IMG/VR virus record: IMGVR_UViG_3300007511_000019
From: a virus
Length of the DNA: 64,000 nt
Strand: one strand, 5' to 3'
The notes under the pieces are model-generated. The model did not search any database. It worked only from the letters and a program-made list of their open reading frames with translations, and was not told the DNA's origin. The position numbers were made by a program, and so were the translations under genes. Positions 7,590 to 58,597 of the stretch are shown in pieces. Each line of letters begins with the position of its first letter. The stretch's first letter is position 1.

Positions 7590-7627
7590 CACCCCTGGAT
7601 TGTAAGAAATCCAGGGGTGTTTTTCTT
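7590..7627 (+). terminator. rho-independent terminator
   Basis: Perfect 11-bp stem (CACCCCTGGAT / ATCCAGGGGTG) with an 8-nt loop, followed by TTTTTCTT. Confidence 0.75.
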
Positions 7628-7631
7628 ACAT

Positions 7632-8078
7632 ATGACCAGCACAATATTGCCTCTACCTCCCTTGTTGCCGAATTTCAGGCGAGAGTTGCATCTCGACGAT
7701 GTTGCGGTAATCTTACCTGGGTTTCAAAACTACATAGACGCGGAATGGCGTGTACTGTACTCTGCAGCCATGAACGTACAGCTGCGTACGGAGTTACCTT
7801 TCTTCGACTTTACGCAGCTGTATCCAGGCACTCGGCAGTTTCGTCACTTCTGCCGAGTTATTGGTAACATAGACACCGCTTCCGCCGAGTATCAGTACGC
7901 GGCAAAAGACGCTGACAAGGTAATGGAAGATTACCGAACAGCAATGCTCGAAGCTGCCGCTGGCCAACGCCTTTCGTTTATGCAAGAGGCGTTCGACCGA
8001 ACACGGTTGGTCGGTAATATAGCTCGAGCGTACGGTAAGCTCCAAGCACTGTACGCAGACGCCCGTCTCGATCTGTAG
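7632..8078 (+). CDS. hypothetical protein (start moved to the ATG at 7632, because the tracker GTG at 7617 lies inside the terminator)
   Basis: ORF in the same frame, 148 aa. Confidence 0.35.
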   Translation: MTSTILPLPPLLPNFRRELHLDDVAVILPGFQNYIDAEWRVLYSAAMNVQLRTELPFFDFTQLYPGTRQFRHFCRVIGNIDTASAEYQYAAKDADKVMEDYRTAMLEAAAGQRLSFMQEAFDRTRLVGNIARAYGKLQALYADARLDL

Positions 8079-8098
8079 CCAGTTCCGGAGAGGTAGGG

Positions 8099-8128
8099 TA
8101 GAATCAGGTAGATCGCCACCTGATTCTA
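8099..8128 (+). promoter_or_regulatory. TAGAAT -10-like hexamer embedded in a perfect 11-bp inverted repeat (TAGAATCAGGT-N8-ACCTGATTCTA); candidate promoter/operator or 5' hairpin
   Basis: The arms are perfectly symmetrical at 8099-8109 and 8118-8128. TAGCCA lies 17 nt upstream of TAGAAT. The element sits between the stop at 8078 and the ATG at 8138. Confidence 0.5.
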
Positions 8129-8137
8129 GGAACCCAA

Positions 8138-8968
8138 ATGACTGATCCCAGTTTTGCGGTATTTGACGAAGACCGATTTCCTCCCACGAGTAACCTCGCC
8201 GAAGCATATCAGCAAGAGGTTACCTACGGATACGAGGTAATGAAGGAACGATCGGTAGTGATCGCTGGTCTCGCTCGTAACATCGAAAAGGCAGTCCCGA
8301 TAACAACCTCCCGCATTGAGCGGCTAGGAGAGCTGTTTCAGGACTACCGTGTGGTGCTTTACGAAAACGACTCTCGCGACCGTACGCCTGAATTGTTACA
8401 GGCTTGGGCTGATTCCAACTCCAGCGTAGACCTTACGTCTGAACGCCGGGGCGATCCTGTGAATCCGCAAATCCGGTGTCTAAACCGGGCAGCCCGTATG
8501 GCTCACTACCGAAATCAGTGCCGACTCAAAATTGCGGAGAAGTACCCTGACGTAGATAACGTCATCGTACTTGATACCGACCTGACTGGCGGGTGGAGCT
8601 ACGACGGCATCGCCCACACCTTTTCCAAGACCGAGGCATGGGACTTCGTTGGAAGCAACGGGATCATGTTCAAACACTTTAACGGCCAGAACAACTACCC
8701 AGTCTACTTCGACGTCTGGGCATTTCGCTGGCAAGGCACCTATCAACCTTGCTTTGCACCAAAGATCAATCCCCGACGCTGGAACCGGGGCGAAGCTTTA
8801 GTTCCGCTCTACTCCTGCTTCGGCGGGTTAGGGGTTTATCGTGTAGAGGCAATGTTGCGGTGCTCGTACGACGGTTCGGACTGCGAGCATGTCCCATTTC
8901 ACCGCAAAATGCGGGAAGCCGGAATGGGCCGTATTTTCATGAACCCGAGCCAAATCGTACTCTATTGA
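8138..8968 (+). CDS. putative glycosyltransferase (GT-A-like)
   Basis: The protein is 276 aa with a DXD-like motif (VIVLDTDLTG). Its layout loosely resembles polysaccharide glycosyl/mannosyl transferases. Support is weak. Confidence 0.3.
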   Translation: MTDPSFAVFDEDRFPPTSNLAEAYQQEVTYGYEVMKERSVVIAGLARNIEKAVPITTSRIERLGELFQDYRVVLYENDSRDRTPELLQAWADSNSSVDLTSERRGDPVNPQIRCLNRAARMAHYRNQCRLKIAEKYPDVDNVIVLDTDLTGGWSYDGIAHTFSKTEAWDFVGSNGIMFKHFNGQNNYPVYFDVWAFRWQGTYQPCFAPKINPRRWNRGEALVPLYSCFGGLGVYRVEAMLRCSYDGSDCEHVPFHRKMREAGMGRIFMNPSQIVLY

Positions 8969-25116: not shown

Positions 25117-25894
25117 CCAACCTACCTTCTACGACGCTGTACAACACGTCACTGCTAAGGCTTTGCAACGTAAAGCTCTAGCTGGAGCAGGTACAGCGGC
25201 ACTAGCTGGTCTCGGTACTGGTGCAGGTCTACGAGGTATCCTCGGCCTGTTGGAAATGAGCAGGCAAGGTGCCCAGCCGCCCCAGGCTCAAGCCCCTACC
25301 GGTCAGATCGAGGTCCCGGTGGACGACGAGAAGATCGCTGCCTTGGCGGATTTCCTCAAAGGCGACTATGCCAAATCGACTTCTGGTGTGCCTTGGGCCA
25401 TTCCTGCCGCTGTTGGTGCCGGTGCTGCCGGAGCGTACGGTGGTTGGAAAGGTATCGACGCACTGCTCGAGCAAAGACGAAAAGGCGAACTAGAGGCTGA
25501 GCTTGAAAAAGCCAAGATGGACTACGAAGCTGCCTTGTCTGGCGACACCAAGTTAGCGGAAGACCTGGACGAACTCTACGACACAGTAGAGAAACAAGCT
25601 GTCTCCGCGTCAGACGCAGCAGGAACGGCTACAGGACTCTACGGAGTCTACGGCGGTACTTCAGCTTTGTTGGCCGCCATTATGGCTTACCAATACGGTA
25701 AGAAGCGACAACGCCGGTCCTTGCTTGAAGCGGCACAAGAGAAACGCCGCCGACAACGCTTTGCACGACAACCTGTGCCGATCCAAGTACGGCCAGTGCC
25801 TAAGCAGCATGAGCAGGACCCGCTGCAGGCAAGTAAGTCCCCGTTCCAGGCCGCACCTAGCTTGGACGAACAAGAAGATCAACTGGATAAGTAA
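25058..25894 (+). CDS. hypothetical Ala/Gly-rich membrane-associated protein with a charged C-terminus (start uncertain; the tracker start is 24986)
   Basis: An RBS (AAGGAA) precedes the ATG at 25058. It is TAATG-coupled to the RNAP gene at 25894. Confidence 0.35.
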   Translation: MTNLALVLKASRQSSEKSANQPTFYDAVQHVTAKALQRKALAGAGTAALAGLGTGAGLRGILGLLEMSRQGAQPPQAQAPTGQIEVPVDDEKIAALADFLKGDYAKSTSGVPWAIPAAVGAGAAGAYGGWKGIDALLEQRRKGELEAELEKAKMDYEAALSGDTKLAEDLDELYDTVEKQAVSASDAAGTATGLYGVYGGTSALLAAIMAYQYGKKRQRRSLLEAAQEKRRRQRFARQPVPIQVRPVPKQHEQDPLQASKSPFQAAPSLDEQEDQLDK

Positions 25895-28800
25895 TGCCAA
25901 ACATTCTGTCACCGCCCTCCGGCGTGCTAAGCGGGACCAAACCTGCTCTGCCGCAACCGGTACGTCCTCTGCAAAAAGAGGAACCGGAAAAGCGAGAGTT
26001 CGGTGACGCTTTGGCCACGCGGCGGCTTATCTACAACAACGTGCTGGCGTCGACTCAAACACTTGAGCCGATCTCTAACCAACGCCACACGCTACAACTG
26101 CGTGATGTTAAATACGCTGACGATCCCAAGTTCTCGTACAAGCAGCAAAAGGAAGCCATCCTCGGCGGTAAGAGTCTCAACCGTCGACTGCAAGGCACCT
26201 GGGAGCTGTCGGATAACGAAACTGGCGAAGTGCTTGACAGCAGGCCCGGCGTAGTTGCTCGTGTACCGCACCTGACGGATCGCGGTACGTTTATCCACAA
26301 CGGTAACGAGTACACCCTGTCCAACCAGATGCGGTTGCGGCCAGGCGTGTTTACCCGTGTCAAAGACAATGGAGAAATTGAAGCCCACGCAAACCTATTG
26401 CCGGGTAAAGGCGTCAGCCACCGGTACTTCCTAGACCCCGAGAAGGGTATTTTCCACATGCGGATGGGGCAGGCGAAAATACCGCTGATGCCTCTTCTCA
26501 AGTCGCTCGGAGCAACAGACAAACAATTGCAGGAAGCATGGGGCAACGAACTGTGGCAAGCTAACGCTCAAAAGGACAACCCAGGAACCCTATCGAAGCT
26601 GTACCAAAAACTGGTACGTAAGATTGACCCTGATGCCGACGAGCCAGCTAAACGCCTAGCCGTTGCCGAAGTCATGGAGAAAATGGAACTGGACCCCGAG
26701 GTTACACAACGAACCTTAGGTAACAGTTTCAACAGGATGGGGTTGGATGCGATTCTAGCCACCACCAATAAATTGCTCGCAGTATCCCGTGGAGAACAGG
26801 AGGTCGATGACCGTGATCATCTCGCTTATCAAAATGTCCTGGGCCCAGAAGATTTGTTCGCGGAACGTATCGCAAAGGATTATGGCGGACTCCGCCGACA
26901 ACTTTTGCATAGATCTAGCTTTAAGGGAGACTTGTCAGCCGCACAGTCCGGTATGCTAAGTCGCCAGTTAGAAGCCGCGTTACTCCATTCTGGATTAGGG
27001 CAAAGCCTTGAAGAAATCAACCCAGCAGACATCTTCGACAAACAATCAAGAATCTCACGTCTCGGTGAGGGCGGCATCCCGTCCATCGACGCCGTGCCAG
27101 ACGAAGCTAGGGCGGTTCAGCCGAGCCACTTGGCTTTCATGGACCCAGTACGCACGCCGGAATCATTTAAGGTCGGTGTGGATGTGCATATTGCCAACAC
27201 GGCTCGTAAAGGATCTGATGGCCGAATTTACTCACCGTTCGTTGATCCTCGTAGCGGAAAAGAGGTGTGGAAGTCGCCCCAGGACCTTGCAGATCTCACA
27301 GTCGCTTTTCCCGGCGAAATGCGTAGGGAAACTAAGCGGGTTGGTGCCATGCAAGGCGGCAAACTCAAGTTTGTCCCAAAACAGTCTGTGGACCTGGTTG
27401 TGCCCACTTTCGAAAACGCTTTCTCGCCGCTAGGTAACATGGTTCCCATGAAGTCAGCGGTCAAGGCCCAGCGTATGGCTATGGCTAGCCGTATGCTCAC
27501 ACAGGCCTTGCCGCTCGAGAACGCAGAGAGTCCGCTTGTACAGACCGGCATCTCTGGCGAAGAGGATACAAGTTACGAGCAGCGATATGGTCGTAAGATG
27601 GGTGCCGTCTTCGCCGACAAGCCAGGACGAGTAGTTTCAATAAGCGACCAAGGGATTAAGGTCAAGTACGACGACGGAACTACAGAAGAGAAGCAGCTCT
27701 ATAACAACTTCCCGTACAACCGCAAAAGCGTAACCGGTGACACTCGTATTGTGATCCGACGCAAGAATGGCGAACTGTGGACTGGATCAATCGATAAGTA
27801 CCACTGGGAAGATAGCGACCAAGTGCAGTCGGTGGACCCAGACTCCAAGCAGTCTGCCTGGAAACGCGTCACAGGTTACATTACGCACTGCAACGACAAA
27901 CAGCTGTTGCGGATAACTACTAAATCCGGGAGATCGGTCGTGGTCACGGAAGACCACAGCCTTATTACGCTGGACAAACACGGAGAACTGGTACCGGTCT
28001 ACCCTAAAGACTGCGAGATCGGGCTAACCCGCCTGCCTGTAGCCATGTTGCAGGGTCATCGATCTCGGCGACATGGCCAGGAGATTAGCAAAGACCCGAG
28101 CGGCATTCTGTGGGGGCTGTACGTAGCCGAGGGGCACTGTCCGCCTACCCAACCAGGGCTAGTTAACATTGCAGTAGAGCCAGACGACCGTGCAGAACAG
28201 GTGTTGGAAGTGGCTCGTCAGTGCGGTTATGAGGCGTACCGCAATGGCGGTAACGTATGCTTTACTGACCACGCCTTCGCCGCCAAGGCGACTGAGCACT
28301 TTGGCCACCTGTCGCACAACAAGCGAATTCCCGCCTGGGTGCTTGGTACTCCCGTCTGGTTTCGGGAAAGTTTTGTTCAAGGCTATATGGCTGGCGACGG
28401 GTGCTTGTGGGAGGACTCAAACGGGTCGCTACAGCTGCAGGCCGTTACGGTTTCTAGAGAGCTTCGCGACGGATTTGTCGAGTTGCTGTTAAGCCTAGGC
28501 ATTATGACGACGCTTTTCGATGCACCTAGAAAGCACCTCAACGACAACTGGCGTGACGCGTACGGTTGCCGCATAATCAGTAGCCACGTAGGGCGACTTC
28601 GTAAGTGGTTCTACTACGCAGACCGTGAGCGACAACTCCACGAGCTGCTAAAGCCTACGTATCGAGCCGCAAGCTTTGACCTGGTCCCGGTAGCCGCCGA
28701 GGCCCGTAAACTTCTGTACAAGGGTTATATCGGGACGGTTCCTAGCTATGTCTATAAGACCGCCAACCAGGGAGCAGTTGCTAAGCACCGGTTGAAAGAA

Positions 28801-31551
28801 AATACAGGCGTGTTCGGCGACTGGGCACGCTCTGATGTACTGTGGGACCCTATCGAAGAAATTATCCCTGTTGCTTACGAGGAACGAGTATATGACCTTT
28901 GCGTCCAGCACTCCGAGGCATTTTGCGTCAACGGCGGACTGCTCGTGCACAACACCTACATTCACAATACTCCGACAGTCAAGCCAGGTGACACCTTTGG
29001 TGTGGGGCAGGCCTTGGCTAAATCCAACTTTACCGATGCTGGTGGCACTACCGCTCTCGGTAAGAACGCTCGCGTTGCGTACATCCCATTCCGAGGGCAG
29101 AACTTCGAGGACGCTCTTGTGATCTCCGAGTCTTTCGCCAAGCGAATGAGTTCGGAGCACATGTATCAACACGGCGTGGACTTCGCAGACGACAAGAAAA
29201 CCAAACGACGCGACTATGTCTCACTCTTCCCATCCAAGTATGACAAACAAACTTTAGAGAGCATCGACGAAGACGGCGTCATCAAGCAGGGCACTATCGT
29301 CAGTCACGGCGACCCCCTTATTCTGTCGGCACGGCAGAAGGACGTTGCTCAGCATAAAGTCCATCGTCGCAAGGCTCCTGGCTTTACCGACCAATCCGAG
29401 ATCTGGAAGCACCATGCCCCTGGCGTGGTTACTGATGTATTCAAGGGCAAGAAGGGCACCACGGTCCTAGTCAAATCGCTCTCAGCTATGCAAAAGGGCG
29501 ACAAGCTATCAGGCCGCTACGGTGACAAAGGTGTTATCTCGGCGATCGTGCCGGATAACGAGATGCCCCACTCAAAGGACGGACAGGCTTTCGAAGTTTT
29601 GCTTAACCCTCTTGGTATTATCTCCCGTACAAACCCGGCCCAAATGGTTGAGGCCGCACTGGGAAAGATTGCTGCCAAGACAGGGAAACCTTACAAGGTG
29701 GTTGATTTTGAAGACATACAAGATTTGACGGACTTTGCGATCCAGGAACTCAAGAAGAACCAAATGGAGGACCTGGAGGACATAACCGACCCGTCGAACG
29801 AGAGAAAGATTCCCGGCGTCTTCACCGGCAACCGCTTCTTCATGAAACTCCACCATACGGCGGAGGGAAAGGGGCAGGGTCGTGGTACAGGAGGTTATAC
29901 GATGGAAGGTACTCCCGCGAAAGGCGGTGAGACCGGTTCCAAGCGAATTTCACTTCTCGATAACAACGCACTCCTCTCGCACGGTGCCACTGAGGTTCTT
30001 CGAGACGCAGGAGCAATTCGAGGACAACGTAATGAGGAGTTCTGGCTCCCATTCATGCGTGGTGTTACTCCCCCAAAGCCCAAGGTACCCATTGTCTATC
30101 AAAAGTTCGTGAACGAGCTTAAGGCATCAGGTATTAACGTGGTGGAGGACGGAACACAAACACACATTATGGCCCTCACCGACAAAGACGTCGGTGAGCT
30201 GGCTGGACAGAGATACCTCAAGAGCGGCGACACGGTTCAATTTGAAAAAGGATTGAAACCGATCACCGGCGGTCTGTTCGACCCCGCACTAACCGGCGGA
30301 CACAACGGCAATCGCTGGTCGGCAATCAAACTCGCAGAACCTATGCCGAACCCGGTAATGGAAGAACCCATTCGCCGCGTCTTGGGACTTACACAAAAGC
30401 GATTCGAGGCCGTCCTATCCGGGCAGGAAGAGTTGCAAGGACACCGTGGTCCTGCAGCCTTTACCAAGGCCCTAGGTAAGATGGACCTGGATAAAGAGAT
30501 TGCTTACGCACAAGCGGAATTCAAATCCGGACGTAAGGCCTCTCGAGATATGGCCATACGTAAACTGGGTTACCTCAAGTCCGCCAAGAAACTAGGCATA
30601 CACCCTAAAGACTGGATGCTGACCAAGGCTCCTGTATTGCCCCCGATGTTTCGTCCGGTGTCGGTGATGTCCGACAACCGCCTTCCTTTGGTATCGGATG
30701 CTAATTTCCTTTACAAGGAATTACTGGAAGCTAACGACAACCTAACAGAGATGTCAAAAGAGGTGGACGATGTCGCCGACGAACGTCTTGCGGTCTACAA
30801 CGCTTTCAAAGCAGTCACAGGACTTGGAGATCCAATACACCCAAAACTGCAGGAGAAACGCGTCAAGGGGATTCTTAAGCACGTATTTGGTTCTAGCCCT
30901 AAGCTGGGTGCTGTGCAGCGTAGGCTTGTATCCAGTACTGTGGATCTTGTTGGCCGTGCAGTTATTACTCCTAACCCTGACCTGGACATGGACCATGTTG
31001 GGCTTCCAGAGAATAGAGCCTGGGACATCTACAAGAACTTCATCGTACGAAGACTCAAGCGGCGGGGTATGCCGCTGGTCGAAGCGGCCAAGCAGGTCGA
31101 GAACCGTTCAGAAGTAGCTAAACAAGAGTTGGTCAAAGAGATGGGCGAACGGCCCGTGGTGATCAACCGAGCCCCGGTTTTGCACCGTTTCGGCATCATG
31201 GCTTTCTACCCCAGACTTACCAAGAGCGACACTCTGGAGGTCTCCCCGTTGATCGTGAAAGGCTTCGGAGCTGACTTCGATGGGGATGCTATGCAATACC
31301 ACGTACCGGTCTCCGACGAGGCCAAAGACGAGGCCGTGGACCGTATGTTGCCAAGTCGCAACCTCTTAAGCCCGGCTGACTTCAAGTCGCCTATCCACGT
31401 ACCGAGTCAAGAATACACCGGTGGATTGTACGCTGCGTCGTCCACCAAATCTAAGCGGCGGGTGCGTACCTTCCGCAATACCAAGGATATGCTCGCAGCC
31501 TATCGGCGTGGTGAGCTAGACATCAACGATGAAGTGGAGGTGATGGAGTAG
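25894..31551 (+). CDS. rpoB: phage multisubunit RNA polymerase: beta subunit fused to the N-terminal (rpoC1/gamma-like) part of beta', interrupted by an intein
   Basis: Beta blocks include LTDRGTFIHNGNEY...RPGVFT, GKNARVAYIPFRGQNFEDALVISE, GDKLSGRYGDKGVIS...LLNPLGIISRTNP and GNRFFMKLHHTAEGKGQGRGTGGYT. Beta' blocks follow in the same ORF: PITGGLFDP, VLPPMFRPV, NRAPVLHRFGIMAFYP and GADFDGDAMQYHVP. The ORF ends about 90 aa after the DFDGD motif. Confidence 0.85.
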   Translation: MPNILSPPSGVLSGTKPALPQPVRPLQKEEPEKREFGDALATRRLIYNNVLASTQTLEPISNQRHTLQLRDVKYADDPKFSYKQQKEAILGGKSLNRRLQGTWELSDNETGEVLDSRPGVVARVPHLTDRGTFIHNGNEYTLSNQMRLRPGVFTRVKDNGEIEAHANLLPGKGVSHRYFLDPEKGIFHMRMGQAKIPLMPLLKSLGATDKQLQEAWGNELWQANAQKDNPGTLSKLYQKLVRKIDPDADEPAKRLAVAEVMEKMELDPEVTQRTLGNSFNRMGLDAILATTNKLLAVSRGEQEVDDRDHLAYQNVLGPEDLFAERIAKDYGGLRRQLLHRSSFKGDLSAAQSGMLSRQLEAALLHSGLGQSLEEINPADIFDKQSRISRLGEGGIPSIDAVPDEARAVQPSHLAFMDPVRTPESFKVGVDVHIANTARKGSDGRIYSPFVDPRSGKEVWKSPQDLADLTVAFPGEMRRETKRVGAMQGGKLKFVPKQSVDLVVPTFENAFSPLGNMVPMKSAVKAQRMAMASRMLTQALPLENAESPLVQTGISGEEDTSYEQRYGRKMGAVFADKPGRVVSISDQGIKVKYDDGTTEEKQLYNNFPYNRKSVTGDTRIVIRRKNGELWTGSIDKYHWEDSDQVQSVDPDSKQSAWKRVTGYITHCNDKQLLRITTKSGRSVVVTEDHSLITLDKHGELVPVYPKDCEIGLTRLPVAMLQGHRSRRHGQEISKDPSGILWGLYVAEGHCPPTQPGLVNIAVEPDDRAEQVLEVARQCGYEAYRNGGNVCFTDHAFAAKATEHFGHLSHNKRIPAWVLGTPVWFRESFVQGYMAGDGCLWEDSNGSLQLQAVTVSRELRDGFVELLLSLGIMTTLFDAPRKHLNDNWRDAYGCRIISSHVGRLRKWFYYADRERQLHELLKPTYRAASFDLVPVAAEARKLLYKGYIGTVPSYVYKTANQGAVAKHRLKENTGVFGDWARSDVLWDPIEEIIPVAYEERVYDLCVQHSEAFCVNGGLLVHNTYIHNTPTVKPGDTFGVGQALAKSNFTDAGGTTALGKNARVAYIPFRGQNFEDALVISESFAKRMSSEHMYQHGVDFADDKKTKRRDYVSLFPSKYDKQTLESIDEDGVIKQGTIVSHGDPLILSARQKDVAQHKVHRRKAPGFTDQSEIWKHHAPGVVTDVFKGKKGTTVLVKSLSAMQKGDKLSGRYGDKGVISAIVPDNEMPHSKDGQAFEVLLNPLGIISRTNPAQMVEAALGKIAAKTGKPYKVVDFEDIQDLTDFAIQELKKNQMEDLEDITDPSNERKIPGVFTGNRFFMKLHHTAEGKGQGRGTGGYTMEGTPAKGGETGSKRISLLDNNALLSHGATEVLRDAGAIRGQRNEEFWLPFMRGVTPPKPKVPIVYQKFVNELKASGINVVEDGTQTHIMALTDKDVGELAGQRYLKSGDTVQFEKGLKPITGGLFDPALTGGHNGNRWSAIKLAEPMPNPVMEEPIRRVLGLTQKRFEAVLSGQEELQGHRGPAAFTKALGKMDLDKEIAYAQAEFKSGRKASRDMAIRKLGYLKSAKKLGIHPKDWMLTKAPVLPPMFRPVSVMSDNRLPLVSDANFLYKELLEANDNLTEMSKEVDDVADERLAVYNAFKAVTGLGDPIHPKLQEKRVKGILKHVFGSSPKLGAVQRRLVSSTVDLVGRAVITPNPDLDMDHVGLPENRAWDIYKNFIVRRLKRRGMPLVEAAKQVENRSEVAKQELVKEMGERPVVINRAPVLHRFGIMAFYPRLTKSDTLEVSPLIVKGFGADFDGDAMQYHVPVSDEAKDEAVDRMLPSRNLLSPADFKSPIHVPSQEYTGGLYAASSTKSKRRVRTFRNTKDMLAAYRRGELDINDEVEVME
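27727..28953 (+). mobile_element. intein (409 aa) with a LAGLIDADG homing-endonuclease domain in RNAP beta
   Basis: The flanks (...YNRK and TYIHNTPTV) match the beta region ...YTRSNQN / TCINQMPCV. Hint block A is SVTGDTRIV (Ser1). The C-terminus is ...LLVHN with Thr at +1. LAGLIDADG-like motifs are ILWGLYVAEGH and FVQGYMAGDGCL. Confidence 0.7.
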
Positions 31552-31612: not shown

Positions 31613-32296
31613 ATGACCATGTTTTCTGGAAAACTCCAAGAACTCGTGAAGATCGCCCGAGCCCAAAACGGTAAACAGGCCTTTGTCGACCCCGCAATGG
31701 CTGCGGGTGGTGGAATGCCCCCAGGTGGCGATCCCGCCGCGATGGGTATGGATCCTGCCGCAATGGGCGGTGCTCCCCCTGCAGATCCTGCTGCGATGGG
31801 TGGAGCCCCTCCGGCTGATCCTGCTGCTGGTGGCGGAGGTATTTCTCGACCAGAAGTCGAGGCAATGATTCAACAAGCCGTAATGGCTGGTGGCGGGGGC
31901 GGTGCTGGAGGTCCTGGCGGAGAAGCCGGACTCAAACCTAAAATCGATGTCAACGTCGAGATCATGCAGATGAAGAACCTGCTGGCCAAGGTTGTTGACA
32001 CTCTTGGTATTCCGGTACCTGCTGAAGAAATGACAGCTACGACTGACAAACTCACCGCGATGGCCCAGGGTCAAGACCCAATGGCTGGCGGCGGAGGTGC
32101 TCCCGGCGGAGACCCAGCTGCGGCTGGTGGTGCAGGCGGAAGTGCGATTGCTCCGATTGGCCCGATGGCTGGGGCGTCTCCCGAGCTTGCTAAGTCCGGC
32201 TGCGATATGGGCACTGCGGCAGACCCGATTGATATGGTAGGTCTGCGAGACAAGGCGTCAGCTTTGGCTGCTGTGCTGCGGCGGAAAGATTCGTAA
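31613..32296 (+). CDS. Gly/Pro/Ala-rich protein with DPAAMGG repeats
   Basis: GDPAAMGMDPAAMGGAPPADPAAMGGAPPADPAAGGGG is repeated. The same motif type occurs in the scaffold-like protein at 46182. Confidence 0.4.
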   Translation: MTMFSGKLQELVKIARAQNGKQAFVDPAMAAGGGMPPGGDPAAMGMDPAAMGGAPPADPAAMGGAPPADPAAGGGGISRPEVEAMIQQAVMAGGGGGAGGPGGEAGLKPKIDVNVEIMQMKNLLAKVVDTLGIPVPAEEMTATTDKLTAMAQGQDPMAGGGGAPGGDPAAAGGAGGSAIAPIGPMAGASPELAKSGCDMGTAADPIDMVGLRDKASALAAVLRRKDS

Positions 32297-32792: not shown

Positions 32793-33045
32793 GCAATTGC
32801 GGGCTCGAATGGCCCGACCAGCTACCCCCACACTCAAAGTTCTGTCTGTCTGGGTACAGCACGGAGTAGAACAGCAGTTACTGCCCATAGCATCTGGCGA
32901 TGACGACGCCCAGCTGCGTGGACTGCTTGCAAATTGGGAGCAGCAACTGGACTACGGGGAAATGGTCGCTTCAAACATGCGGTATCTAGGGCGGCACCGG
33001 ATTGTAACAGTTCCTTTCATCGGACGGCAAAATGGCAAAGCGTAA
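32761..33045 (+). CDS. hypothetical protein
   Basis: The 94-aa ORF overlaps both neighbouring genes. Confidence 0.25.
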   Translation: MALQGGFGVPEQLRARMARPATPTLKVLSVWVQHGVEQQLLPIASGDDDAQLRGLLANWEQQLDYGEMVASNMRYLGRHRIVTVPFIGRQNGKA

Positions 33046-36000
33046 GGCTACTGCTGGCCAGATCCTCATCAACGAAGTGTTGCCTGAAGACATGCGGGAC
33101 TACAACCGCACGCTCGACAAGAAGGGTCTGTCCAAACTGCTTACCGAGGTAGCCCAGAAGCACCCGGACGACTATCGAGATATCTCCCACCGACTGGGCA
33201 AGATCGGACGCGAAGCCGCCTTTACATCAGGCGGCAATTCTTTTGGCCTAGCCCACATGAAGCGTGCTTTGGTCGCCCGCAAAATGCAGTCTGGCCTGAA
33301 AACCCGTATCAACGCATTGCTGGACAACGACAGCCTTGACGATGACGCAAGAGACGCAGCCATTATCAAACTGGTTGGTAAGGCCATGCCGCAGCTGCAG
33401 GACGCCATTCTTGAAGAGAGCGACGCCGAAGGTAACCCGCTCGCCCAACAACTCAAAGGTGCCGGTCGCGGTAACAAGATGAACCTCTCTTCGTTACGAG
33501 GTAGCGACGGGCTGTATCAAGATCACCGTGACAACATCATCCCGATTCCTGTACTCAAGAGTTACTCAGAAGGGCTCTCGCCGCTAGAGTATTGGGGCGG
33601 GACTTACGGTGCCCGGCAAGGTGTTATGGCGGTTAAGTTCGCTACACAGGACGCTGGCTTTCTATGCCTTGCGGAAGGCACGGAAGTGCGGATGGCTGAC
33701 TGGAGCACCAAGCCTATCGAAGAGATCCAAGTAGGTGACACGGTACTGGGAGCTAACAAGTACGGAACGACCTTTCCCGTCAAAGTGACCGCCACTTTTG
33801 ACAACGGTGTGCGGCAGCTAACAAAGTTCCGCTTCCGGTACGGCAAGGCCCGCAACCGTTTTATTGAGGTGACAGCCACCGACAAACACAAAGCCCTGGC
33901 CGAGCATCTTCGTCGCCGACGCAAACGCCCTGATCCTAGGTTACATATTGAGATCAGCCAAGACGTTATGCCAATGGGTACGTTCGAACGACGGACAGTT
34001 TCGCGGCACGCTCTAGTCCCACCTCAAGGCTACTCCTGCCCGCAAACCGGTCCGAGAGACGAGTACTGCTGGCTGCTAGGCCTCCTGACTGCCGAAGGCG
34101 GTTTAACTACGAATCACGTAGGACTGTCTTGTGGAGATCCGGAGCTGCTAAAAGAGGCTCGACGGTTGACAAAGCCAATGGGTTTCGAGATACGCCAAAA
34201 GAAAAATGCCCAGTACGAATACAGCTTTTATGACACCCAGCCCTTGCCCGCAAAAGGTAAGCCTGGCGGAGGCATTGCCACCGGTTCTTTCCGAAACCGG
34301 CTCAAGGCCAAGCTGGCTGAACACGGGCTGCTAGGTAAACTGGCCCAGGACAAGGAATTGCCCGAACAAATTTGGGCGTGGCCCAACTCACATGTCTGCG
34401 GTTTTCTTCGTTGGCTCTTCGCCGGTGACGGGGGTGTCAGTCCGTCGAACAACGCTACGCTGCCTGTAGTCACGTTGGGCATGACAGCGGAGCCGGTTGT
34501 GCGGGGCGTCGAACGCTTGTTGGCCGATCGTTTTGGCATCTACGGTCAGATTAGTATGGACAAGGCGGAGAACTGCCCTAAAGCCAACCATGACTGCCAT
34601 GTTCTTGCCATTTCCGATCCCCAGTCGGTGGAACGCTTCGCACAACACATAGGTTTTGTTGCTGGTAGTAAGCAGGCCCGTCTAATGACGCTGCTGGCCG
34701 AGGCCGACCCTTGCGAGAGGCACAGCCGCTTTCTCTTCCATTACCTCGACTCCGAGGACGTTGGCGAAGGTCCTACTTACGATATCGAGGTCGACAACGA
34801 GGACCACCTATTTGTACTGGCCAACGGGGCAATTGTCTCCAATTCCAAACAACTCAATCAAATCGCACACCGCTCAGTCGTGATCGACGAAGACAGCGAT
34901 GGCGAGCCCGACACCCTCATTGGTCTGCCTGTCGATACTGACGACATGGACAGCGAGGGTTCGTTGTTGGCGGCTCCTGCGGGCAAGTATAAACGAAACA
35001 CAGTGCTCACTCCTAAGATCATCCGCGAATTGAAGCAAGCGGGAATCAAACGGCTCTTGGTGCGAAGCCCAGCAATCGGTGGTACGCCAGACGGCGGTGT
35101 GTACGGCAGGGACGTCGGTATTAGAGAATTCGGTCGACTTCCTACACGAGGCGAAAATGTTGGACTCACAGCTGCTCAAGCCCTATCTGAACCGCTGTCT
35201 CAGGCTCAACTCTCGGCGAAGCATACAGGCGGGGTGGCTGGCGAATCCCAAGCAGTCTCTGGATTTGATTACATCAACCAACTCGTACAAGTTCCCAAAA
35301 CCTTCAAAGGCGGAGCAGCCCATTCAACGCTTGACGGTATCGTACAAGCTGTCGAGCCCGCTCCTGCCGGTGGTACCTATGTCTCCATCAACGGAGAACG
35401 ACATTACATCGCAGGAGGGTTCGAGCCAAAGGTTAAGAAAGGCGATCACGTCGAAGCTGGAGACGTTATTTCTGACGGCACTCCGAACCCTTCGTTGATT
35501 ACCAAACACAAAGGCGTGGGCGAAGGCCGACGTTACTACATCAAGTCGTTTGCTGACGCCATGAGTTCTGCTGGCATCAAATCCCACCGCCGCAACGTCG
35601 AACTACTAGCGAGAGGGCTTATCAACCACGTTCGCCTTACAGACGAGATCGGGGACTTTGCACCTGACGACGTGGTGCCCTACTCCATGATGGCCGCTCG
35701 GTACATTCCCCGAGAAGGGTTCAAAACAATGGATCCCAATCGTGCAACAGGTAAGTATCTTGAGAGGCCCTACCTGCACTATTCGATCGGCACCAAGATC
35801 CGCCCATCGATGATGAAAGACTTCAAAGACTTTGGCGTGAAAAGCGTTGATGTACATGACGACGAACCGCCTTTTGAACCAGAAATGATCCGAGGCATGG
35901 CTAACCTGCAACACGACCCAGACTGGATGACCCGTATGTTCGGTTCTGGTCTGAAAGGTAGCCTGCTTCGCGGTGTACATCGAGGCGGCACTTCGTCGGA

Positions 36001-36094
36001 GACCGGAACCAGCTTTGTGGCCGGTCGGGCGAAGGCCGTTGACTTTGGTCGTACAGGTATTATCCAAACTCCGAAGGAGCCTCCCAAACCATGA
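33032..36094 (+). CDS. rpoC: RNA polymerase beta' C-terminal (rpoC2-like) subunit, interrupted by an intein
   Basis: [12 protein letters not shown]...KKGLSKLL matches beta' at AILNEILP...KKAISKML. Further matches are [25 protein letters not shown] to [41 protein letters not shown] to TRRLVDVAQDLVVTEDD, and [23 protein letters not shown] to [23 protein letters not shown]. Confidence 0.85.
   Translation: [1020 protein letters not shown]
33665..34843 (+). mobile_element. intein (393 aa) with a LAGLIDADG endonuclease domain in RNAP beta'
   Basis: It begins [10 protein letters not shown] (Cys1, Hint block A) directly after the GFL of the GYL|TRRL-equivalent site, and ends ...NGAIVSN with Ser at +1. 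LAGLIDADG-like motifs are [14 protein letters not shown] and [12 protein letters not shown]. There is no penultimate His. Confidence 0.65.
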
Positions 36095-54345: not shown

Positions 54346-55623
54346 ATGAGTATTGGTGGAATCGGCGTTAGAACTATCGGGCTTCAGACGATTGCCTACT
54401 TCCCCGCCGAAGCAGCCGATCAGTTTCTATCGCCAACAGGTATCGCTTCGGCTGAGGTTTTCGGCTCGGCGTCGGTACTGGTCGGTACCGTTACGCTTAA
54501 CCCATCCGGTGTTGCCGCTGTCGACGCCTACGGCTCCGCAACAATCTTGGCTGGTGCAGTCATACTGACACCATCCGGCATCACTACTGCAGATGCCTAC
54601 GGCTCGGCGACTGTTTCAGTAGGTGCAGTTACTCTCAGCCCGACTGGTTTGGCCGCTGCAGATGCCTATGGCTCGGCGACAGTTATAGCGGGCAGTGTTG
54701 TACTTACACCGAGTGGGTTGGCCTCGGGTGAGGCGTACGGAACAGCGACCCTCGATATCGCAGTCAGTGTAACCGGCCTGTCTTCTGCCGAGGGGTACGG
54801 TTCTGCTACGTTAAGTCCTGGGGCAGTAACGCTTGCCCCAACAGGCATCGGTTCGCTAGAGAGTTTCGGCGTAACGGTATTGTTAGCCGGGCCAGTTACG
54901 CTGACACCAACCGGTTTAGTCGCTGTCGATGCTTACGGCTCGGCAATCGTTTCTCCGGGAACTATTTCAATCACCCCGACAGGGGTAGCGTCCGCAGCTG
55001 CTGTGCCTAGTCCTACGCTGAACCTCTCGCTTCTGCTCGGAGGTATAGCCACGGCGGAAGCCCACGGTGCCAGCGTTGTAGCTACTGCCACTACGGTGCT
55101 CGAGCCAGGGGGTATAGCTACAGCCGAAGCCCACGGGACAACAACAGTAATACCTGGTGCGGTAGCCATTGTTGGAGCGGGAATTGTTACAGATGAGGCG
55201 TACGGTACAGTAAGTTTGCTGCCCGGAGAGGTTACACTGTTGCCGACAGGGCTGGCCACGACCGACGCCTACGGCAGTGCCACGCTTCAACCCGGGGCGG
55301 TAACCGTAAATCCAACAGGGTTTACCGACGAGGTCGTGGGCAACGCTACGCTAGCTGCATCCGTATCCGTACAACCTGCAGGACTAGCTTCCGACCAAGC
55401 TATACCCAGTCCGGCTCTAGCAATGACGCTCGCGATTGTAGGAATAGCCACGGCGGAAGCTTACGGCTCGCCTTCTGTACTAGCAGGCGTTGTGGTAATA
55501 TCACCTACAGGATTAGCGGACGAATTTGCCCTGGGGCTGGGTCTATTTGTATTTGCTGGCTCGGGTGAGAAGGGCATGTGGAGCCCAACTCTCTGGGGAA
55601 CAGAAAGCACAGGAATGTTTTAA
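54346..55623 (+). CDS. fibre-like protein with about eighteen tandem 21-aa repeats
   Basis: The consensus repeat is P(T/S)G(L/I)AxxDAYGSATxxxGAVTL(T/S). Confidence 0.5.
   Translation: MSIGGIGVRTIGLQTIAYFPAEAADQFLSPTGIASAEVFGSASVLVGTVTLNPSGVAAVDAYGSATILAGAVILTPSGITTADAYGSATVSVGAVTLSPTGLAAADAYGSATVIAGSVVLTPSGLASGEAYGTATLDIAVSVTGLSSAEGYGSATLSPGAVTLAPTGIGSLESFGVTVLLAGPVTLTPTGLVAVDAYGSAIVSPGTISITPTGVASAAAVPSPTLNLSLLLGGIATAEAHGASVVATATTVLEPGGIATAEAHGTTTVIPGAVAIVGAGIVTDEAYGTVSLLPGEVTLLPTGLATTDAYGSATLQPGAVTVNPTGFTDEVVGNATLAASVSVQPAGLASDQAIPSPALAMTLAIVGIATAEAYGSPSVLAGVVVISPTGLADEFALGLGLFVFAGSGEKGMWSPTLWGTESTGMF
54420..55520 (+). repeat. in-frame tandem repeat of about 63 bp inside the fibre-like gene
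   Basis: Cores such as GA(T/C)GC(C/T)TA(C/T)GGCTCGGC recur every 63-66 nt. Confidence 0.6.
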
Positions 55624-57244: not shown

Positions 57245-58597
57245 ATGACTTTCAGTACAGTTACGGTCGTAGATGCCTCTGCTGGTGTTGAGATCCTAGT
57301 GGATGACGTGTCGGGCCAACTGCTTCAGTGTATCAAGCCCTTCTTCGGAAAAGAAGGTTCGGCGACCGCCGTGTCCGCTGACAATCCGATGCCAGTAGTT
57401 AGGCAAAACGGAGAGTACGACGCGTTTGGTCGCCAGCGAGTTAGCCTACCAGTTACGCTGTTCGATTTCAAACAAACGTCGGACATGATAGACGCATTGG
57501 TGTGGAGCACGTTAGCTACGGGGTCCGGAACCGGTACTTTTCGTACTAACGAGTCCGCGTTCAGACTGGAGGTTGGTACCGGCAACGGTGACGAGTTTGT
57601 GCGACAAAGCAAGTCGCGGCCAATGTATCAGCCCGGGAAGTCGATGCTGTATCACTTCACCTGCTCTCTCGGGGCCAATGACGCAAACGTACTCAAGCGT
57701 ATTGGATTCTTCGACAACGACAACGGTCTATTCTTCCAGAAAATCGGTGGGACGGCCTCGGTAGGTTTGCGATCCAAAGTCACCGGAAGCGTTGTAGACA
57801 CCTTACACGACCAATCCACCTGGAACGTAGACAAGATGGACGGAACCGGTCCGTCGGGCATTACTATAGACTGGACCAAGTCGCAAATATTTGTGGTGGA
57901 TTACCAGTGGCTGGGTGTGGGCCGCGTTCGATTTTGCATGGTTGTAGACGGTGTACTGCGTATTGTGCACGAGCTAATGCACACCAACACGCTCAGTACA
58001 GTCTACATGAGCTACCCGAACCTGCCCGCTCGAGCTGAGATTAAGAACTTGGCTACGACTACGGGCAGTAGCTATTTGGACCAGATCTGCGTCAACGCTG
58101 TTCTGGAGGGCGGCGATGTAACTCCACAAGGTGTTCGGCACTCGGTTAACCGAGATGTAACCGCACTGGCCAACGACGACACTGCACCCAAACCACTGAT
58201 CTCTATTCGACTTGACAACACCAAAGCCATCTACAGCCAACTTCGTGGGCTGACCGGCAGCATAATGACTTCGAGCAAGTCCAACTTTTTGTGGGAGGCC
58301 TACCTTAACCCGGTATTTGCCAGCCCTATTGGGCACGTGTGGGGTAGTGTTCCGTTTAGTGCAGTGGAATACGACACAACCGAAACATCAGACATATCTG
58401 GCGGACTGCTGCTAGACAGCGGCTACGTAGCCGACAGTGCCGAGTCGGTAGGCTACTCGGCCTTACCTGAGGCATCGGAGCTGTCGCTCGGTCGAAACTT
58501 AGACGGTAGCCAGGATGTTTTGGCAATAGCCGTACGAAACCTGGCAGCGGCCACCGAAAGCTACTATGGATCCGTAACCTGGCTCGAGGTTTCCTAA
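57245..58597 (+). CDS. hypothetical structural protein
   Basis: ORF of 450 aa. Confidence 0.4.
   Translation: MTFSTVTVVDASAGVEILVDDVSGQLLQCIKPFFGKEGSATAVSADNPMPVVRQNGEYDAFGRQRVSLPVTLFDFKQTSDMIDALVWSTLATGSGTGTFRTNESAFRLEVGTGNGDEFVRQSKSRPMYQPGKSMLYHFTCSLGANDANVLKRIGFFDNDNGLFFQKIGGTASVGLRSKVTGSVVDTLHDQSTWNVDKMDGTGPSGITIDWTKSQIFVVDYQWLGVGRVRFCMVVDGVLRIVHELMHTNTLSTVYMSYPNLPARAEIKNLATTTGSSYLDQICVNAVLEGGDVTPQGVRHSVNRDVTALANDDTAPKPLISIRLDNTKAIYSQLRGLTGSIMTSSKSNFLWEAYLNPVFASPIGHVWGSVPFSAVEYDTTETSDISGGLLLDSGYVADSAESVGYSALPEASELSLGRNLDGSQDVLAIAVRNLAAATESYYGSVTWLEVS

Follow-up and report, generated by a model that had tools for sequence, protein, structure and literature searches.

We describe an insertion in the RNA polymerase (RNAP) gene of a viral contig, the IMG/VR record IMGVR_UViG_3300007511_000019; "the window" below means this whole stretch of 64,000 nt. 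We are confident that the insertion is a class-1 intein of the canonical type that houses a double-motif LAGLIDADG homing endonuclease, residing in an essential phage RNAP gene. Its anatomy, exact boundaries, fold, residue conservation and patchy distribution are shown below; coordinates are collected in Table 1.

The open reading frame (ORF) carrying the insertion encodes, by its domain content, the RNAP β subunit fused with the N-terminal half of β′. Pfam matches along it run in the order Rpb2_2, Rpb2_3, the insert, Rpb2_6, Rpb1_1 and Rpb1_2; with the whole ORF as query, the RNA_pol_Rpb2_6 match opens at residue 1020, which is the last intein residue. The ORF stops shortly after the GADFDGD catalytic loop. 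The insert itself consists of 409 in-frame codons without a stop, opening with SVTGDTRIVI and closing with GGLLVHN. Its removal takes the protein from 1885 to 1476 amino acids (aa), the length of the best intein-free homolog (P0005, 75% identical), whose uninterrupted junction reads FPYNRKTYIHNTPTV; excision in silico rejoins ...FPYNRK/TYIHNTP... (a slash marks a splice junction or insertion point throughout), identical to the intein-free allele. Searching with the predicted spliced protein gave at least 1180 homologs of the host gene, most of them ~1475 aa long.

Alignments to more distant polymerases give the same insertion point. With gp206 of phage Arash and the phage D69 protein (both ~30% identical), MAFFT gathers the 409 residues into a single insertion that separates ...PYNRK from TYIHN.... 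Alignment to Salmonella RpoB sets NFPY, a three-position gap and NRK/TYIHNTPTV against KYTRSNQN/TCINQMPCV, and in Thermus β the site falls at ...SNQG634/T635AFDQRPRV. The original prediction, made from the DNA letters alone, held that an insert starting with Ser and ending HN/T interrupts β, an essential catalytic subunit, at the equivalent of E. coli ...SNQN/TCINQ.... The Salmonella RpoB, Thermus, Arash/D69 and P0005 alignments agree on that placement; translation of the insert and the following ACC codon gives the named ends; and the site does belong to the catalytic core of β, where the hybrid-binding domain begins, 50 residues before the NFED motif of the active centre. The comparison with intein-free homologs that it proposed gave the same answer, P0005, Arash gp206 and D69 all being continuous across the junction. 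In E. coli β numbering we infer the site to be N762/T763, obtained by subtracting a 38-residue annotation offset; with this offset NFED lands at E813/D814, in agreement with the E. coli numbering. At the nucleotide level, the 72-nt junction region of the window, spliced in silico, is identical at 56 of 72 positions to an intein-free allele (L004). The intein-less junction of that allele, AAAGAAATCTACAACAACTTCCCCTACAACAGAAAAACCTACATTCATAACACTCCTACAGTTAGACCCGGA, is a candidate endonuclease target.

Taken alone, the insert matches the Pfam family Intein_splicing at 6.5e-14 (52.4 bits against a cut-off of 35.8), with the match closing exactly at residue 409. The original prediction had proposed a search for Hint blocks; blocks A, B, F and G are all present. 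Conservation was counted over 32 aligned orthologs that occupy this insertion site: their residue 1 is always Ser or Cys, the +1 residue is Thr or Ser, and key residues of blocks B, F and G are invariant (Table 1). All the sequence and predicted-fold hallmarks of a class-1 intein are thus present. Class-3 inteins lack a nucleophile at residue 1 and have the WCT motif (Trp in block B, the nucleophilic Cys at F:4 and Thr in block G). Assignment to that class was rejected; Ser1 is present, F:4 is occupied by Asp390, which is invariant, and the sequence of block G is VHN.

An AlphaFold2 model of the intein, built on 18 orthologs, has a mean pLDDT (predicted local distance difference test) of 93.4 and a predicted template modelling score (pTM) of 0.92, and only the loop 113-119 is disordered. 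In a Foldseek search of the PDB with this model, the top 16 matches are all intein endonucleases, led by TliVMA (7qss, 2e-21), PI-PkoII (2cw7, 2.4e-20) and PI-PfuI (1dq3, 5.5e-19), each with a template modelling (TM) score of ~0.7. PhoVMA and PI-SceI are further matches of this kind, and the intein structure matches span 1e-16 to 1e-21. Lower in the ranking come the free-standing endonuclease I-Tsp061I (2.5e-7) and many I-DmoI entries (~1e-5); mini-intein structures (7oec, 2lcj and 9hth) are matched as well. A PDB search with the intein sequence gave PI-PkoII as the best match (7e-12) and also matched PI-SceI.

By its motifs and predicted fold the insert is, in addition, a double-motif LAGLIDADG homing endonuclease. 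Pfam LAGLIDADG_3 hits the insert alone at 2.2e-8, and the two LAGLIDADG motifs of the original prediction are both there, with their acidic residues, E135 and D224, intact. In PI-SceI, K301 and D326 are endonuclease active-site residues; the first aligns with Lys199 of the window intein and the second with D224. From the intact motifs and the modelled fold, homing competence can reasonably be inferred.

The intein is one member of a large family with a patchy distribution. Exhaustive phmmer searching reached 1432 cluster representatives at E ≤ 1e-3, of which 48 passed E ≤ 1e-30, sequence similarity far beyond chance; ~37 metagenomic cluster representatives carry an intein at the same FNRK/ site. 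Among the 120 best clusters of the host family, only three have an intein at this site (the window's own, P0062 and P0072), and none is present there in the closest host homologs (64-75% identical). The P0062 copy is a mini-intein of 182 aa from which the endonuclease has been deleted. A tblastn search of 50,697 deposited phage records found no orthologous intein; the matches obtained cover part of the endonuclease domain and lie in other genes, at no more than 40% identity and 45% coverage. The window intein is an allele seen only in metagenomes, of a well-known kind in a new host lineage, the phage β-β′ fusion. Two further intein-like ORFs, P0141 and P0002, keep their LAGLIDADG motifs intact and have degenerate splice junctions (block B reads TADA; P0141 opens with Ala and ends LLQD, and P0002 ends LLHG); judging from sequence, these may be decaying inteins or endonucleases becoming free-standing. 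Patchy presence, a mini-intein and decayed copies together make the picture expected of a homing cycle.

Splicing and DNA cleavage we propose from this anatomy and from knowledge of the family. The 1885-aa precursor would be translated first. The hydroxyl of Ser1 would attack the carbonyl of Lys(-1) in an N-O acyl shift, probably with help from His54 and from T74/H77 of block B; the hydroxyl of Thr+1 would take the N-extein by transesterification, giving a branched oxyester; Asn409 would cyclise with the help of His408, releasing the intein; and an O-N shift would leave a normal Lys-Thr peptide bond in a polymerase subunit of 1476 aa. By analogy with Ser1/Ser+1(Thr+1) inteins (PMC10189870), both splicing intermediates would be oxyesters, with no thioester. 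Because the site lies in the β core beside the active centre, the polymerase should stay inactive until splicing; eukaryotic RNAP inteins have been argued to behave likewise (PMC1635734). Once released, the 409-aa protein would use E135 and D224 to cleave the allele without intein (...AACTTCCCCTACAACAGAAAA/ACCTACATTCATAACACT...) of a relative infecting the same cell, and repair from the intein-bearing copy would spread the element.

The second half of this scheme is the more exposed to objection. It is possible, if on the unlikely side, that the intein splices and the endonuclease is inactive, the element having become fixed and being inherited vertically, as a passenger near the end of the homing cycle that persists without spreading. 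Several observations weigh against active homing by the window copy. Between hosts, intein identity does not exceed extein identity (63% for both against P0072; 53% for the intein and 73% for the exteins against P0062), so there is no sign of recent transfer; intein divergence that equals or exceeds extein divergence fits a passenger. A compositional sign of recent transfer is absent too, the intein having a G+C fraction (GC) of 0.550 and 0.611 at third codon positions (GC3) against 0.533 and 0.587 for the extein. So full a match to the host gene points to long residence, by which time endonucleases have often lost their activity, and the window copy looks like an old resident. The endonuclease domain is also the least conserved part of the intein (it averages 42% identity with the window copy, where the splicing halves reach 52-55%); some orthologs lack E135 or D224, and P0062 lacks the whole domain. 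Nor does the one near-identical sequence help: the 32-kb contig Ga0105023_1000853 from Joint Genome Institute (JGI) metagenome 3300007754 (L006 in our set) differs from the window by four substitutions in the polymerase gene and by none in the intein, and as a second assembly of the same phage it gives no measure of selection. The next relative is only 63% identical, and its synonymous sites were judged too diverged for a ratio of nonsynonymous to synonymous rates (dN/dS). Against an inactive endonuclease, the window copy retains E135, D224 and K199, and its confidently modelled domain matches active enzymes.

Another reading gives splicing a function: it could be conditional, a switch for phage transcription by which the polymerase would mature in certain host-cell conditions only. 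The circumstantial case for this is that the polymerase has another intein, in the C-terminal half of β′, and that relatives have up to four (P0062); with several inteins near the active centre, polymerase assembly must wait for several splicing events. We find it improbable. No sensor is indicated in the sequence, most relatives function without an intein at this site, and selfish homing accounts for clustering at conserved sites, as was argued for eukaryotic RNAP inteins (PMC1635734).

That the insert is a dead relic, left for good as 409 extra residues in a β that may or may not function, is very unlikely. Degenerate relatives do exist (P0141 and P0002), but the window copy has kept every catalytic residue, its ORF runs through 1885 codons without a break, and a 45-kDa insert would hardly be tolerated in the conserved core 50 residues from NFED (compare PMC1635734). 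Finally, it is barely credible that in place of a protein-level element we have an intron plus a free-standing gene for a homing endonuclease, or a chimeric assembly: Vibrio phages D181 and D148 do have the polymerase gene broken by a homing-endonuclease ORF, at another site, but the insert here is in frame, stop-free and flanked on both sides by Hint blocks, the same structure was assembled independently in the second metagenome without a difference in the intein, and ~37 other clusters have the same arrangement.

Returning to the canonical intein, one feature of its chemistry deserves a closer look. The original prediction singled out the combination of Ser1 and Thr+1 as notable, which was overstated: Ser is the majority residue at this site (26 of 32 copies), and such inteins form a documented subgroup, with 58 Ser1/Ser+1(Thr+1) inteins of 16 alleles in InBase (PMC10189870). 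Related inteins at neighbouring β sites are Ser1 inteins as well (MGxRM/SVTGD...VHN/TTQALPL and G/SV...VHN/SNFEDA), as are related inteins in unrelated proteins. A distant Ser1 relative, P0003 (25% identical), is inserted in an apparent trypsin-like protease (GD/S...HN/SGSAF), where splicing would restore the GDSGS active-site motif and the +1 Ser would be the catalytic serine.

For oxyester inteins a specific "NX" histidine has been described, a conserved His upstream of block B that lies within hydrogen-bond distance of Ser1 and is preceded by a Lys/Arg reported as invariant (Pasch et al. 2023, PMC10189870). The window's candidate for this residue is His54, ~20 residues upstream of block B. 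The residue before it is Thr53, not Lys/Arg, which counts against the assignment; among the 22 orthologs with His54, 14 have K/R before it and the rest A, E, Q or T. The histidine covaries with residue 1 (proteins P0124-P0270). In the 32-ortholog alignment it occurs in 22 of 26 Ser1 copies and in none of the six Cys1 copies; with further same-site copies added, His/non-His counts are 26/5 for Ser1 against 1/7 for Cys1 (p = 3.6e-4). In a wider set of 91 related N-terminal domains, 71 have Ser and His, six Ser and non-His, one Cys and His, and 13 Cys and non-His (Fisher p = 1.8e-10, uncorrected for phylogeny). A rough neighbour-joining tree scatters the Cys1 copies over at least three positions, and from the AGC codon of Ser1 to TGC for Cys is one transversion. 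We give an even chance to the proposal that, at this one β site, the first nucleophile switched between Ser and Cys repeatedly, each switch going together with the appearance or disappearance of the NX histidine. If the coupling is causal, it would argue, on independent evolutionary grounds, that a dedicated general base is a requirement of oxyester inteins. Ser1/His54 and Cys1/non-His orthologs (the window copy and P0125 or P0148, for example) would then be a ready-made system for conversion of Cys inteins to cysteine independence; attempts to make Cys-dependent inteins cysteine-independent have failed so far (PMC10189870).

The polymerase of this phage contains a second intein, of 393 aa, within the separate ORF for the C-terminal half of β′ (...AGFL/CLAEGTEV...ANGAIVSN/SKQLNQIA; Pfam LAGLIDADG_3, 1.4e-14). 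Its residues include Cys1, T-D-K-H in block B, Ser in place of the penultimate His, the terminal Asn and Ser+1, and its site is in what we take to be the β′ bridge-helix region (E. coli ...TANSGYL/TRRLVDV...). A Pfam scan of 10 other large ORFs of the window found no further inteins. The fused β-β′N family as a whole is an intein hot spot. Among homologs P0028-P0113 we see at least 11 sites, after reference residues 142, 404, 423, 611, 796, 836, 915, 939, 1063, 1257 and ~1390 (inside NADFDGD); P0062 has four inteins and P0070 three or more. In this set, inteins at all resolved sites except 611 open with Cys. In Vibrio phages D181 and D148 the homologous gene is broken into two ORFs by ~950 nt containing an annotated homing-endonuclease gene (7617-8567 in D181, L003, by comparison with D69, L002). 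That break falls within the conserved ...NMVP...QALPL... segment, the same region in which related Ser1 inteins (MGxRM/S...) insert elsewhere in the family.

The host is an uncultured large tailed phage. Bacterial-type β and β′ domains and phage structural genes occur together in the window, and among cultured phages the relatives are Arash, of Salmonella, and the Vibrio phages D69 and D181. The layout of the polymerase genes is unusual: the β-β′N fusion is followed by a 227-aa ORF rich in Gly, Ala, Pro and Met, for which we found no Pfam match, and then by the separate C-terminal half of β′. In the GADFDGD loop of the window, Gly replaces the usual Asn; many relatives have NADFDGD.

Table 1. 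Positions in the window of the intein, its host gene and other features named in the text
Feature	Position	Strand	Evidence or remark
LigD-type phosphoesterase + ligase OB protein, 1065 aa	18730-21927	+	
Host gene, 1885-aa single ORF	25894..31551	+	ORF list
N-extein, aa 1-611, ending ...LYNNFPYNRK (Lys at -1)	25894..27726	+	
Intein, 409 aa, class-1 Hint domain split by LAGLIDADG endonuclease domain	27727..28953	+	Pfam, PDB sequence matches, AlphaFold2, Foldseek
Block A, S1-V-T-G-D-T			Residue 1 Ser in 26, Cys in 6 (32 orthologs)
Ser1 codon (AGC), predicted first nucleophile	27727..27729	+	
His54 (CAC), candidate NX-motif histidine	27886..27888	+	Aligned with PI-PkoII H73; covaries with residue 1
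Block B (motif N3), T74-E-D-H77	27946..27957	+	T74, D76, H77 invariant in 32 orthologs
LAGLIDADG homing-endonuclease domain, ~aa 120-345	28084..28761	+	Pfam, Foldseek, residue alignment
LAGLIDADG motif 1, ILWGLYVAE135GH	28102-28140	+	E135 in 28/32 orthologs
Lys199	28321-28323	+	Aligned with PI-SceI K301
LAGLIDADG motif 2, FVQGYMAGD224GC	28366-28407	+	D224 in 30/32 orthologs
Blocks F + G, ...VYD390LCVQHSEAFCVNGGLLVH408N409	28879..28953	+	V388, D390, G404, H408, N409 invariant in 32 orthologs
Thr+1 codon (ACC), predicted second nucleophile	28954..28956	+	Conserved native β residue; Thr here also in intein-free P0005, Salmonella, Thermus (T635)
C-extein: remaining β (hybrid-binding domain, NFEDA motif) + N-terminal half of β′	28954..31551	+	
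227-aa ORF between the polymerase ORFs	31613-32296		
β′ C-terminal half, own ORF	33032..36094	+	
Second intein, inside the β′ C-terminal half	33665-34843	+	Pfam LAGLIDADG_3
Minor tail protein	54346-55623	+	
Virion structural protein	57245-58597	+	phrog_1645, 7e-92

Taken alone, the window intein is a minor addition, an extra allele in a very well understood class of selfish elements. For annotation it matters that the mature polymerase subunit should be 1476 aa and not 1885, a correction needed in both the annotation and the phylogeny of phage RNAPs. The polymerase genes of this phage clade gather inteins, with at least 11 sites, up to four inteins per protein and two in the enzyme of the window phage. 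Mesophilic Ser1/Thr+1 cis-inteins with same-site Ser1 and Cys1 orthologs are relevant to the engineering of cysteine-independent splicing tools, and the modest upside of the find is the covariation between Ser/Cys and the NX histidine.

Among known systems, the genomic setting resembles the RNAP-encoding Caudovirales termed "mReC" (Weinheimer & Aylward 2020, PMC7481178), tailed-phage contigs with bacterial-type β and β′. The window is a candidate member, with β and β′ domains beside phage structural genes and with GADFDGD as against the NADxDGD motif. Inteins are not mentioned in the mReC paper (PMC7481178), and the jumbo-phage papers name gyrase and terminase as intein hosts and RNAP genes as hosts of introns, an RNAP intein of the window type not being among them. 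Arash gp206 and the D69 protein share the fused β-β′N architecture without the window intein.

Inteins also occur in the largest RNAP subunit of archaea. In the second-largest subunit they are known from six published sites in eukaryotic and viral RPB2/RPA2/RPC2/RPO genes (Goodwin et al. 2006, PMC1635734) and from chloroplast rpoB (Fte RPB2, PMC2997540). These share with the window intein the host protein family, conserved sites near the active centre, LAGLIDADG domains and the use of several non-allelic sites per gene family. Their hosts are eukaryotic nuclear, giant-virus and chloroplast genes, whereas the host here is a phage β-β′ fusion.

The closest parallel in the PDB by sequence is PI-PkoII (PI-TkoII; Thermococcus kodakarensis DNA polymerase intein 2, 2cw7), the best PDB sequence match and second-best fold match (TMq 0.71), with the same bipartite architecture of Hint domain and double-LAGLIDADG endonuclease. 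Its R72-H73 aligns with window T53-H54, and it is cited among the Ser1/Ser+1(Thr+1) cis-inteins (PMC10189870). The two are only ~16% identical in the structural alignment, and PI-PkoII is longer (537 aa against 409 aa), archaeal, thermophilic and in a DNA polymerase rather than RNAP β. The VMA-type inteins TliVMA (7qss), PhoVMA (7qst) and PI-SceI (1vde) include the top fold match, TliVMA, and the aligned endonuclease residues of PI-SceI (K301/D326). They differ in their host, an ATPase, and are 12-16% identical to the window intein. TliVMA, PhoVMA and PI-SceI are Cys1 inteins; the 7qss and 7qst entries name C1A mutations, consistent with this.

In its predicted splicing chemistry the window intein resembles the oxyester NX inteins PolB16 OarG, Aes123 PolB1 and Psp Pol-1 (PMC10189870), with which it shares Ser1, the block B His and a His upstream of it; its combination of Ser1 with Thr+1 is also that of the group, and the Aes123 PolB1 structure (9hth) is among both its fold and its sequence matches. 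Unlike the inteins of that study, it is not "cysteine-less", having nine non-catalytic cysteines, and the residue before its candidate NX His is Thr. The oxyester NX examples (PMC10189870) are split mini-inteins, whereas the window copy is a contiguous maxi-intein that has kept its endonuclease.

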